From a phage: a stretch of DNA of 4,221 nt. This document shows positions 1-4,125 of this stretch, piece by piece; the stretch's first letter is position 1; each line of letters opens with the position of its first letter. Under the pieces are notes generated by a model that saw nothing but the letters and a program-made list of their open reading frames with translations, did no database searches and was not told the DNA's origin. Position numbers and translations under genes: made by a program. The stretch is from the sequence record NC_138367.1; one strand, given 5' to 3'.

Positions 1-4
1 GGGG

Positions 5-22
5 GACCCCCCTTAGGGGGTC
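5..22 (+). promoter_or_regulatory. 5'-terminal hairpin of the phage RNA within the 5' UTR (1..61); genome begins GGGGG
   Basis: Seen in sequence: 5-GACCCCC-11 pairs with 16-GGGGGUC-22 (7 bp, loop CUUA at 12..15). A G-rich 5' end followed by a stable hairpin is the characteristic 5' terminus of Qbeta-like genomes, whose complement forms the minus-strand 3' end. Confidence 0.7.
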
Positions 23-1324: not shown

Positions 1325-1350
1325 AACTTTGGGTCAATTTGATCATGGCA
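1250..1350 (+). promoter_or_regulatory. Approximate S-site (replicase/S1 binding region just upstream of and overlapping the coat start), placed by positional homology
   Basis: Established knowledge for Qbeta: an internal replicase/S1 binding site lies immediately 5' of the coat initiation codon. Coordinates are transferred from memory and not derivable from this sequence alone. Confidence 0.35.
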
Positions 1351-1746
1351 AAATTAGAGACTGTTACTTTAAGTAACATCGGGAAAGATGGAAAACAAAC
1401 TCTGGTCCTCAATCCGCGTGGGGTAAATCCCACTAACGGTGTTGCCGCGCTTTCACAAGCGGGTGCAGTTCCTGCGCTGGAGAAGCGTGTTACCGTTTCG
1501 GTATCACAGCCTTCTCGTAATCGTAAGAACTACAAGGTCCAAGTTAAGATCCAGAACCCGACCGCTTGTACTGCAAACGGTTCTTGTGACCCATCCGTTA
1601 CTCGCCAGGCATATGCTGACGTGACTTTTTCGTTCACGCAGTATAGTACCGATGAGGAACGAGCTTTTGTTCGTACAGAGCTTGTCGCTCTGCTCGCTAG
1701 TCCTCTGTTGATTGATGCTATCGATCAGCTGAACCCAGCGTATTGA
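1345..1746 (+). CDS. cp: Major coat (capsid) protein
   Basis: AUG at 1345 (MAKLETVTLSNIGKDGKQTLVLNPRGVNPTNGVA...) to UGA at 1744..1746 is 402 nt = 133 aa, matching the levivirus coat protein in size and sequence. The ORF-track start at 1321 is a UUG overlapping the A2 stop and is not the real start. Confidence 0.92.
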   Translation: MAKLETVTLSNIGKDGKQTLVLNPRGVNPTNGVAALSQAGAVPALEKRVTVSVSQPSRNRKNYKVQVKIQNPTACTANGSCDPSVTRQAYADVTFSFTQYSTDEERAFVRTELVALLASPLLIDAIDQLNPAY

Positions 1747-2337
1747 ACACTGCTCATTGCCGGTGGTGGCTCAGGGTCTAAACCCGATCCGGTTATCATT
1801 CCGGATCCACCGATCGATCCGCCGCCAGGGACAGGTAAATATACTTGTCCTTTCGCAATTTGGTCCCTAGAGGAGGTTTACGAGCCTCCTACTAAGAACC
1901 GACCGTGGCCTATCTATAACGCTATCGAACTCCAGCCTCGCAAGTTTGATGTTGCCCTTAAAGATCTTTTGGGCAATACAAAATGGCGCGACTGGGATTC
2001 ACGGCTTAGTTATACCACGTTTCGCGGTTGCCGTAGCAACGGTTATATTGACCTTGATGCGTCTTATCTTGCTACTGATCAGGCTATGCGTGATCAGAAG
2101 TACGATATTCGCGAAGGCAAGAAACCCGGTGCTTTCGGTAACGTTGAGCGATTCATTTATCTTAAGTCGATAAATGCTTATTGCTCTCTTAGCGATATTG
2201 CGGCCTATCACGCCGATGGTGTGATAGTTGGCTTTTGGCGCGATCCATCTAGTGGTGGTGCCATACCGTTTGACTTCACTAAGTTTGATAAGACTAAATG
2301 TCCTATTCAAGCCGTGATAGTCGTTCCTCGTGCTTAG
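1345..2337 (+). CDS. A1: A1 read-through protein (coat protein with C-terminal extension; minor capsid protein required for infectivity)
   Basis: The coat frame continues through UGA 1744..1746 into ...TLLIAGGGSGSKPDPVIIPDPPIDPPPGTGKYTCPFAIWSLEEVYEPP...AVIVVPRA and ends at tandem stops UAG UAA (2335..2340). Total is 330 sense codons including the read-through codon. The Gly/Pro-rich linker after the coat domain is typical of A1. Confidence 0.85.
1744..1746 (+). other. Leaky UGA stop codon of the coat gene (programmed read-through site, decoded at low frequency by tRNA-Trp)
   Basis: The coat ends in UGA followed by A (UGA-A). The same frame stays open with no stop from 1747 to the UAG at 2335..2337, which I checked codon by codon. 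This is the hallmark of Qbeta-type A1 read-through. Confidence 0.85.
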
Positions 2338-2351: not shown

Positions 2352-2371
2352 ATGCATGTCTAAGACAGCAT
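2352..2371 (+). promoter_or_regulatory. Coat-protein translational operator hairpin at the replicase start (repressor binding site and packaging signal)
   Basis: Seen in sequence: AUGCAUGUCUAAGACAGCAU forms an 8-bp stem with a single bulged A (position 2356, the A of the start codon) and a 3-nt loop UAA (2361..2363). The replicase AUG (2356..2358) lies inside the 5' arm. This matches the known Qbeta operator architecture of 3-nt loop plus bulged A. Confidence 0.8.
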
Positions 2372-4125
2372 CTTCGCATAACTCTCTTAGCGCACAATTG
2401 CGCCGAGCTGCGAACACAAGAATTGAGGTCGAAGGTAACCTCGCACTTTCCATCGCCAACGATCTACTGTTGGCTTATGGTCAATCGCCATTTAACTCCG
2501 AAGCTGAGTGTATTTCACTCAGTCCGAGATTTGACGGGACCCCGGATCACTTTAGGATAAATTATCTTAAAGCCGAGGTCATGTCGAAGTATGACGATTT
2601 CAGCCTAGGTATTGATACCGAAGCTGCTGCCTGGGAAAAGTTCCTGGCAGCAGAGGCTGAATGTGCTTTAACGAACGCTCGTCTCTATAGGCCTGACTAC
2701 AGTGAGGATTTCAATTTCTCACTGGGCGAGTCATGTATTCACATGGCTCGCAGAAAAATAGTCAAGCTAATAGGAGATGCTCCGTCCGTTGAGGGTATGT
2801 TGCGTCACTGCCGATTTTCTGGCGGTGCCACAACAACGAATAACCGTTCGCACGGCCATCCGTCCTTCAAGTTTGCGCTTCCACAAGCGTGTACGCCTCG
2901 GGCTTTGAAATATGTTTTGGCTCTTAGAGCTTCTACACATTTCGATATCAGGGTTTCTGATATTAGCCCTTTTAATAAAGCAGTTACTGTACCTAAGAAC
3001 AGTAAAACCGATCGTTGTATTGCTATCGAACCCGGCTGGAATATGTTTTTTCAACTAGGCATCGGTGGCATCCTACGCGATCGGTTGCGTTGCTGGGGTA
3101 TCGATCTGAACGATCAGACGATAAATCAGCATCGCGCTCACGAAGGCTCCGTTACTAATAATTTAGCAACGGTTGATCTCTCAGCGGCAAGCGATTCTAT
3201 ATCTCTTGCTCTCTGTGAGCTCTTATTGCCCCCAGGTTGGTTTGAGGTTCTTATGGATCTCAGATCACCAAAAGGGCGGTTGCCTGACGGTAGTGTTGTT
3301 ACCTATGAGAAAATATCCTCGATGGGTAACGGATACACATTCGAGCTTGAGTCGCTTATCTTTGCTTCTCTTGCTCGTTCCGTTTGTGAGATACTGGACT
3401 TAGACTCGTCTGAGGTCACTGTTTACGGAGACGATATTATTTTACCGTCCTGTGCAGTCCCTGCCCTTCGGGAAGTTTTTAAGTATGTTGGTTTTACGAC
3501 CAATACTAAAAAGACTTTCTCCGAGGGGCCGTTCAGAGAGTCGTGCGGTAAGCACTACTATTCTGGCGTAGATGTTACTCCCTTTTACATACGTCACCGT
3601 ATAGTGAATCCTACCGATTTAATATTGGTTTTGAATAACCTATATCGGTGGGCCACGATTGATGGCGTATGGGATCCTAGGGCCCATTCCGTATACCTCA
3701 AGTATCGTAAGTTGCTGCCTAAACAGCTGCAACGTAATACTATACCTGATGGTTACGGTGATGGAGCCCTCGTCGGATCGGTCTTGATCAATCCTTTCGC
3801 GAAAAACCGCGGGTGGATCCGGTACGTACCGGTGATCATAGACCACACAAGGGACCGAGAGCGCGTTGAATCGGGGTCGTATCTTTACGACCTCTTTTCG
3901 CGTTGTTTCTCGGAAGGTAACGATGGGTTGCCTTTAAGGGGTCCGTCGAGTTGCGATTCTGTAGATCTATCTGCCATTGATCAACTTATCTGTAGGAGTA
4001 ATCCTACAAAGATAAGTAGATCTACCGGTAAGTTCGATATACAGTATATCGCGTGCGGTAGCCGTGTTCTGGCACCCTACGGGGTTTTCCAGGGCACGAA
4101 GGTTACATCTCTACACGAGGTATAA
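2356..4125 (+). CDS. rep: RNA-dependent RNA polymerase, replicase beta subunit
   Basis: AUG 2356 (MSKTASSHNSLSAQLRRAANTRIEVEG...) to UAA 4123..4125 is 1770 nt = 589 aa. The catalytic YGDD motif is encoded at 3424..3435 (TAC GGA GAC GAT, in ...SSEVTVYGDDIILPS...). Size and sequence match the Qbeta replicase. Confidence 0.93.
   Translation: MSKTASSHNSLSAQLRRAANTRIEVEGNLALSIANDLLLAYGQSPFNSEAECISLSPRFDGTPDHFRINYLKAEVMSKYDDFSLGIDTEAAAWEKFLAAEAECALTNARLYRPDYSEDFNFSLGESCIHMARRKIVKLIGDAPSVEGMLRHCRFSGGATTTNNRSHGHPSFKFALPQACTPRALKYVLALRASTHFDIRVSDISPFNKAVTVPKNSKTDRCIAIEPGWNMFFQLGIGGILRDRLRCWGIDLNDQTINQHRAHEGSVTNNLATVDLSAASDSISLALCELLLPPGWFEVLMDLRSPKGRLPDGSVVTYEKISSMGNGYTFELESLIFASLARSVCEILDLDSSEVTVYGDDIILPSCAVPALREVFKYVGFTTNTKKTFSEGPFRESCGKHYYSGVDVTPFYIRHRIVNPTDLILVLNNLYRWATIDGVWDPRAHSVYLKYRKLLPKQLQRNTIPDGYGDGALVGSVLINPFAKNRGWIRYVPVIIDHTRDRERVESGSYLYDLFSRCFSEGNDGLPLRGPSSCDSVDLSAIDQLICRSNPTKISRSTGKFDIQYIACGSRVLAPYGVFQGTKVTSLHEV
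2550..2870 (+). promoter_or_regulatory. Approximate M-site (internal replicase binding region within the 5' part of the replicase gene), placed by positional homology
   Basis: Established knowledge for Qbeta: an internal replicase binding site needed for plus-strand template recognition lies in the replicase gene roughly 1.3-1.6 kb from the 3' end. Coordinates are approximate, transferred from memory, and not demonstrated by this sequence alone. Confidence 0.3.

Follow-up and report, generated by a model that had tools for sequence, protein, structure and literature searches.

An additional isoleucine codon in the A1 read-through linker of a Qβ-group phage: a probable natural length polymorphism in the predicted loop of stem-loop 25

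Downstream of the leaky UGA codon of its coat gene, the phage sequence studied here carries two consecutive isoleucine codons where classical Qβ carries one, which raises the question of whether this one-codon difference is genuine, how it originated and whether it matters for the phage. The whole stretch of DNA analysed, referred to below as the window, is 4221 nt long and represents a complete Qubevirus durum genome that starts with GGGGGACCCC and ends with CUCCUCCCA.

The extra codon and the strain that carries it

Positions 1789-1803 of the window read CCG GUU AUC AUU CCG (P-V-I-I-P), with the two Ile codons at 1795-1800, and the linker in which they lie reads ...GGGSGSKPDPVIIPDPPIDPPPGTGKY. 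The A1 read-through gene (1345-2337, plus strand) was delimited by translation, and its position is homologous to that of A1 in the annotated TW18, Qβ and Fr* records; it consists of 330 codons if the initiating Met and the leaky UGA are counted, and is closed by a UAG that is immediately followed by a second stop codon, UAA, at 2338-2340. In classical Qβ (AB971354, AY099114 and UniProt Q8LTE1) the corresponding linker is ...SKPDPVIPDPPIDPPPG, where Ile occurs once (GTT ATT CCG), and the A1 CDS has 990 nt and encodes 329 aa. The sequence-only reading of this locus, which had counted 330 sense codons with AUC AUU at 1795-1800 and had taken the Qβ protein to have 329 aa and a single Ile at this point, was thus correct in both respects. 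The comparison of A1 with Qβ, M11 and MX1 that it had proposed gave 329 aa for all three against 330 in the window, and TW18, BZ1, VK and BR12 also have an A1 of 329 aa each. Among the tblastn matches listed, the read-through extension has 196 codons in the window and 195 (585 nt) in laboratory Qβ. Either of the two Ile codons could be the additional one, since they lie side by side and the single Ile codon is ATT in Qβ but ATC in TW18.

The read-through linker, TLLIAGGGSGSKPDPVIIPDPPIDPPPG, is encoded at 1747-1830 (plus strand, from translation) and is first Gly-rich and then Pro-rich. As in Qβ, it follows a leaky UGA with an A behind it, and its GGGSG and PDPPIDPPPG motifs are identical to those of Qβ; the difference consists of one residue more before PDPP (VII instead of VI). 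Overall, the extension is 93.9% identical to that of Qβ, with 11 substitutions. It matches the structures deposited as 'A1 protein' in PDB entries 3RLC and 3RLK with E = 6e-128 (6.2e-128 for 3RLC_A, residues 11-196), the single gap in this match being the additional residue, and homologues of the extension carry Pfam domain PF16814. The crystallised Qβ read-through construct begins at SKPDPVIPDPP. An AlphaFold2 model of the extension, computed from an alignment of four sequences, had a mean pLDDT of 36.8. The additional codon lies directly before the PDPPIDPPP stretch, in the linker that joins the coat domain of A1 to its globular read-through domain and probably serves as a spacer.

The gene complement of the window is that of a Qβ-like phage: the A2 maturation/lysis gene (ORF at 62-1324, protein at 62-1321), the coat gene of 133 codons (1345-1746, protein at 1345-1743, with the leaky UGA at 1744-1746), A1 by UGA read-through and the replicase gene (ORF at 2356-4125, protein at 2356-4122), all on the plus strand and collinear with the annotated records of Qβ, TW18 and the Fr* isolates. 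A megablast search of the window against 50,697 phage records matched 81 of them, all from the Qβ group and none identical to the window. The best match was TW18 (FJ483840) at 95.8% identity (95.9% over the whole alignment, a value exceeded by no record of the phage collection), followed by three Fr* isolates (95.5-95.7%), GIII_C (95.4%), laboratory Qβ (94.5-94.7%) and BZ1, VK and BR12 (about 92%, and 91.8-92.3% over the whole alignment), while M11 and MX1 reached ~70-71% over the whole alignment and about 75% over its alignable part. The 94.7% identity to Qβ and the ceiling of 95.9% bear out the suggestion, made from the sequence, that this is a Qβ relative and not the reference strain. Gene order, genome identity and the read-through domain all place the window in Qubevirus durum, the F-specific RNA phage genogroup III, but it differs from classical Qβ in the length of A1 (330 rather than 329 aa), in having SKPDPVIIPDPP instead of SKPDPVIPDPP and in genome length (4221 rather than 4217 nt). 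This last difference is accounted for by a 5' nucleotide difference together with the linker codon. The 5' end of the window (1-12) is GGGGGACCCCCC, as in TW18, BZ1, VK and BR12, and that of the laboratory Qβ clone is GGGGACCCCC, 1 nt shorter.

At the protein level, the A2 protein and the replicase of the window are identical to ACT66733.1 and ACT66736.1, respectively, and its coat protein is identical to ACT66734.1 and also to that of FrHibiscus and FrBurgundy. These accessions fall in the series between the proteins of FJ483840 (TW18, ACT66729-32) and those of FJ483842 (BR12, ACT66737-40), while FJ483837-39 belong to group II strains. By elimination, we infer that the strain is very probably HL4-9 (GenBank FJ483841; Friedman et al. 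2009), a genogroup III isolate from a hog lagoon and the one strain of this genogroup in the set to which no other record corresponds (PMC6963950, Table 1). The 90%-identity cluster around the Qβ replicase also includes numerous EF-Ts proteins of enterobacteria, 283 aa long, presumably as a clustering artefact bridged by engineered fusions of replicase with EF-Ts and EF-Tu that is not part of the biology of the window.

Length variation of the linker among isolates

The codons lying between the D-P and P-D-P-P codons of the linker were compared in a codon alignment, with length changes counted relative to Qβ. Qβ itself has GTT ATT, and the same length is found in TW18 (GTT ATC), in BZ1 and BR12 (GTT GAT) and in VK (GTT AAT). 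One codon more is present in the window (GTT ATC ATT, VII) and in FrSangria (GTT ATC ACT, VIT), two more in GIII_C (GTT ATT ACT CCT, VITP) and three more in FrMerlot (GTT ATT ATT ACT, plus a GGT inserted after GAT, giving GPVIIT) and in FrHibiscus and FrBurgundy (GTT GTT GTT ACT, plus a second GAT, giving DPVVVT). The Fr* isolates and GIII_C (PP430142-45 and LC710219) are therefore like the window in having one or more additional codons at the same position, but they have Thr (ACU) in place of its second Ile; GIII_C has a Pro codon beyond the Thr, and FrMerlot, FrHibiscus and FrBurgundy have a further Ile or Val codon as well as a duplicated Asp/Gly codon somewhat upstream, just 5' of the stem described below. 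The proposal, made from the sequence, of an in-frame 3-nt insertion or deletion in a tolerant Pro-rich linker is borne out by these isolates, which carry +0, +1, +2 or +3 codons.

Whole-genome alignment of 12 Qβ-group members showed the linker to be the only site of variation in coding length, and confined this variation to about 14 nt. The internal insertions and deletions found in these 12 genomes were those of the linker (window coordinates 1787 and 1798-1800), one of 1 nt in the 5' UTR and one of 1 nt in the spacer between the A2 and coat genes.

Further forms were found in contigs assembled from sequence reads. Two Logan contigs (L018 and L019) combine the exact coat protein of the window with the FrHibiscus form of the linker. 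Another one, P0001/L020 (Logan SRR33582079, 741-860), reads GENPGPINPKPVDPDPP and is 5 aa longer by virtue of a 15-nt insertion, and P0018/L021 (Logan SRR18186854, 53-170) is 9 aa longer, with GGSGDNPDP-GGSGGNPGP, as a result of a 27-nt tandem duplication whose copies are identical at 22 of 27 positions by our own count. The linker string of the window was absent from IMG/VR in an exact-string scan, and scans of IMG/VR and the JGI metagenomes with gapped patterns rendered two similar BZ1/VK-like phage contigs, both with the short PDPVHPDPP form; one more candidate from these scans (L016) was discarded as a chance match.

Outside the Qβ group, the sister species Qubevirus faecium (genogroup IV, represented by SP, FI, BR1 and HB-P24) also has a Gly-rich and then Pro-rich linker after the UGA, and its A1 proteins, of 330-332 aa, include a one-codon difference in the linker (330 aa in HB-P24, 331 aa in SP and BR1). 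The linker of this species is not alignable with that of the Qβ group, and the tblastn alignments begin at query residue 28.

Stem-loop 25 and the origin of the length difference

At the RNA level, the additional codon falls in a hairpin predicted at 1786-1807 (plus strand), which was placed both by the consensus fold of 12 genomes (RNAalifold) and by the single-sequence fold of the window (RNAfold), and which corresponds to stem-loop 25 of Qβ. Its arms, GAUCCGG (1786-1792) and CCGGAUC (1801-1807), form a perfect 7-nt inverted repeat, and its 8-nt apical loop, UUAUCAUU (1793-1800), carries the variable codon. In a model of the Qβ genomic RNA derived from cryo-EM, stem-loop 25 comprises nt 1788-1800, is classified as 'CP-anchored' and lies within 5 Å of the coat protein, and stem-loops 24 (1773-1784, operator-like) and 26 (1829-1842) are listed as well (Chang et al. 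2022, PMC8880383, Tables S1 and S3). Nucleotides 1788-1800 of Qβ are exactly CCGG-UUAUU-CCGG, matching the predicted hairpin, and the hairpins predicted next to it coincide with the published stem-loops 24 and 26; in the window, the former (GGGU-CUAA-ACCC) is at 1774-1785, plus strand, in both the consensus and the single-sequence folds. The CCGG/CCGG stem of the window and its GAU/AUC extension are identical to those of Qβ, whereas the loop has 8 nt (UUAUCAUU) instead of 5 (UUAUU). No Rfam family was matched by the window, or by any section of it, at gathering scores.

The length differences between isolates fall in the apical loop, which has 5, 8 or 11 nt depending on the isolate, or, in the case of the GAU and GGU codons of the Fr* isolates, directly 5' of the stem, where the inserted GGU is able to replace GAU by means of a G·U pair. 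When 9 Qβ-group genomes were folded in a context of 1.5 kb, 8 of them formed the full 7-bp stem with pair probabilities of 0.94 or more, and FrMerlot kept only the inner five pairs, at 0.98 or above. The predicted free energy of the hairpin is -11.0 kcal/mol in the window, -10.8 in Qβ (5-nt loop) and -9.9 in GIII_C, and ranges from -9.3 to -11.0 kcal/mol at any loop length, with the exception of TW18 (-7.3 kcal/mol), which has a U·G pair. According to these predictions, loop length would be energetically neutral. M11 and MX1 are not predicted to form the hairpin (pair probability of about 0.1); the M11 stem contains one change from A-U to G-C together with an A·A mismatch.

Throughout the Qβ group the stem is invariant except for the one C-to-U change that produces the U·G pair of TW18, and it exhibits no covariation. 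Comparative support for the pairing is weak because of this invariance, and also because the stem is held by the Asp-Pro and Pro-Asp codons, so that the case for the pairing rests on thermodynamic prediction and on the published model. The CCGG/CCGG stem is kept in both of the longest read-level forms; in L020 it is prolonged by AUCAAC/GUUGAU, and in L021 stem-loop 25 encloses an additional copy of the operator-like hairpin of stem-loop 24. The predicted stem is built from the codons for the flanking Asp-Pro and Pro-Asp residues, with the variable codon in its loop.

The reading that we favour, to which we assign a probability of about 0.85, is that the additional codon is an ordinary, selectively tolerated natural length polymorphism at a site that is tolerant in two respects, as a peptide spacer and as an RNA loop, and that it was generated by tandem duplication or deletion. 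Most of the variants are short tandem repeats, as in (GAU)2 and (GUU)3 of FrHibiscus, (UUA)3 of FrMerlot, (CUC)2 of GIII_C and AUC-AUU of the window, to which the 27-nt duplication of L021 can be added, and for this reason slippage or copy-choice by the replicase in the loop is proposed as the mechanism by which such short duplications and deletions may arise. The variants would then persist because both the stem and the folded domain remain unaltered, and are taken to be neutral.

With regard to the history of the codon in the window, the simplest possibility would be that it is shared with the other long forms, as a homologue of the Thr codon ACU present in GIII_C, FrSangria and the remaining Fr* isolates that was converted to Ile by a single C-to-U transition, since the window differs from the AUC ACU of FrSangria by one C/U transition and its sister lineages carry ACU. 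The window groups with GIII_C and three Fr* phages, to which it is 95.2-95.8% identical, with 81% bootstrap support in a neighbour-joining (NJ) tree. It could also be the case, though we consider it unlikely, that an Ile codon was duplicated in tandem privately in this strain (AUY to AUC AUU), independently of the Thr codon found elsewhere. AUC AUU can indeed be read as a tandem repeat with one mismatch, and AUU AUU occurs in FrMerlot; in addition, the length of the site has changed at least three times, and recurrent events are needed on most topologies because the relationships between the clade of the window, Qβ/TW18 and FrSangria are weakly supported (NJ bootstrap of 68%, with strict site patterns distributed 6:3:3 among the three groupings, and a weak disagreement between the NJ topology and these counts on the branching order). 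Nevertheless, an independent insertion is less simple than the one substitution that separates the window from FrSangria, and the sister lineages GIII_C and Fr* all have ACU in the loop. Judging from the sequences, the length difference itself may be either a gain of a codon in the window strain or a loss in the Qβ/TW18 lineage.

RNA constraint on the linker and significance of the variant

The linker might be constrained more strongly at the RNA level. Stem-loops 24 and 25 are enclosed (1771-1817) by a predicted 8-bp closing stem that starts 15 nt 3' of the leaky UGA and in which GGU GGU GG, from the GGGSG motif, pairs with CCG CCG CC, from the DPPP motif. Its 5' arm, GGUGGUGG (1762-1769, plus strand), consists of Gly codons and its 3' arm, CCGCCGCC (1819-1826, plus strand), of Pro codons. 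This stem has a pair probability of 0.65 in the window, with values between 0.12 and 0.96 among relatives, and it is invariant, without covariation. Synonymous variation across 1759-1830 affected 2 of 19 codons, as compared with 36.8% genome-wide, a modest suppression (binomial estimate of about 0.01) that places this region in the lowest roughly 4% of windows of this kind. The lowest synonymous windows elsewhere in the genome are located at the replicase start and operator, inside the M site (2545-2867) and where the replicase gene ends on its 3' side, and these locations suggest that the measure picks up RNA elements. It is conceivable, then, that the Gly/Pro-rich linker of A1 is an RNA element as much as a peptide spacer, that the RNA structure helps to dictate its amino-acid composition and that the loop of stem-loop 25 is the sole site at which a change in length does no damage; we regard this stronger proposal as improbable. 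If it were true, the role of the RNA structure would be in the contact with the capsid or in modulating read-through or the transit of ribosomes.

An adaptive meaning of the length itself, by which the residues of the linker or the size of the loop would tune the stand-off of A1 from the capsid, the contact that the RNA loop makes with coat protein or how efficiently the UGA, 15 nt before the structured region, is read through, seems to us quite improbable. The closeness of stem-loop 25 to the coat protein in the Qβ RNA model (within 5 Å; PMC8880383) and the reduced synonymous change in the region would be compatible with it, and so would the reported first rank in abundance of the HL4-9-type strain among the genogroup III strains of a wastewater plant in Japan (PMC6963950), but the predicted stability of the hairpin is equal for loops of 5, 8 and 11 nt, and the residues added in the different isolates (I, T, P, V and D/G) are chemically unrelated, as drift would give. 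In the literature found, no phenotype was linked to the length of the linker and no paper tied one to this site. A sequencing or assembly artefact in the record is extremely improbable, since, even if the exact 23-nt string of the window occurs in no other record and its exact 330-aa A1 is missing from the protein collection, the difference is of exactly 3 nt and in frame, the independently sequenced FrSangria has the same length, five further isolates and several assemblies from reads carry longer forms, and the genome lengths add up (TW18, 4218 + 3 = 4221).

Taken as a tolerated polymorphism, the variant is ordinary and belongs to a strain whose sequence is already public, and it is only mildly new in that the sole site of coding insertions and deletions coincides with the loop of stem-loop 25. 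It implies that the length of A1, which is 329-332 aa in isolates and more in read-level assemblies, is not fixed in the species, and that the window represents a field strain of Qβ and not the laboratory reference, a point that matters little alone. Of more practical use, the V-I/P-D junction is a naturally validated site that accepts from 1 to 9 inserted residues in viable phages, and it could inform the design of peptide display or tagging in Qβ, for which fusions to the C-terminus of A1 are currently used. The locus also offers a small worked example of how overlapping constraints on RNA structure and protein can confine insertions and deletions to one site in a compact RNA virus.

Two other structured regions of the genome were noted. 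The window at about 3600-3670, within the replicase gene, corresponds to the FrSangria region (3582-3665) containing the stem-loop to which, according to a 2026 preprint, escape of this phage from the HEPN RNase ApeA maps, with a hotspot at nt 3600-3636. The hairpin of the A1 linker was considered as the ApeA escape hotspot and rejected, given that the hotspot is in the replicase gene. In the RT4-R22 kissing loop, located at 1880-1883 and 2848-2851 of the window, the published Qβ pairing is ACGA with UCGU, and it covaries within the group, being AUGA with UCAU in BZ1, VK, BR12 and M11. The partner sequence is UCGC in the window and in FrMerlot, which turns one A-U pair into A·C and changes a Tyr of the replicase to His (RSYG to RSHG).
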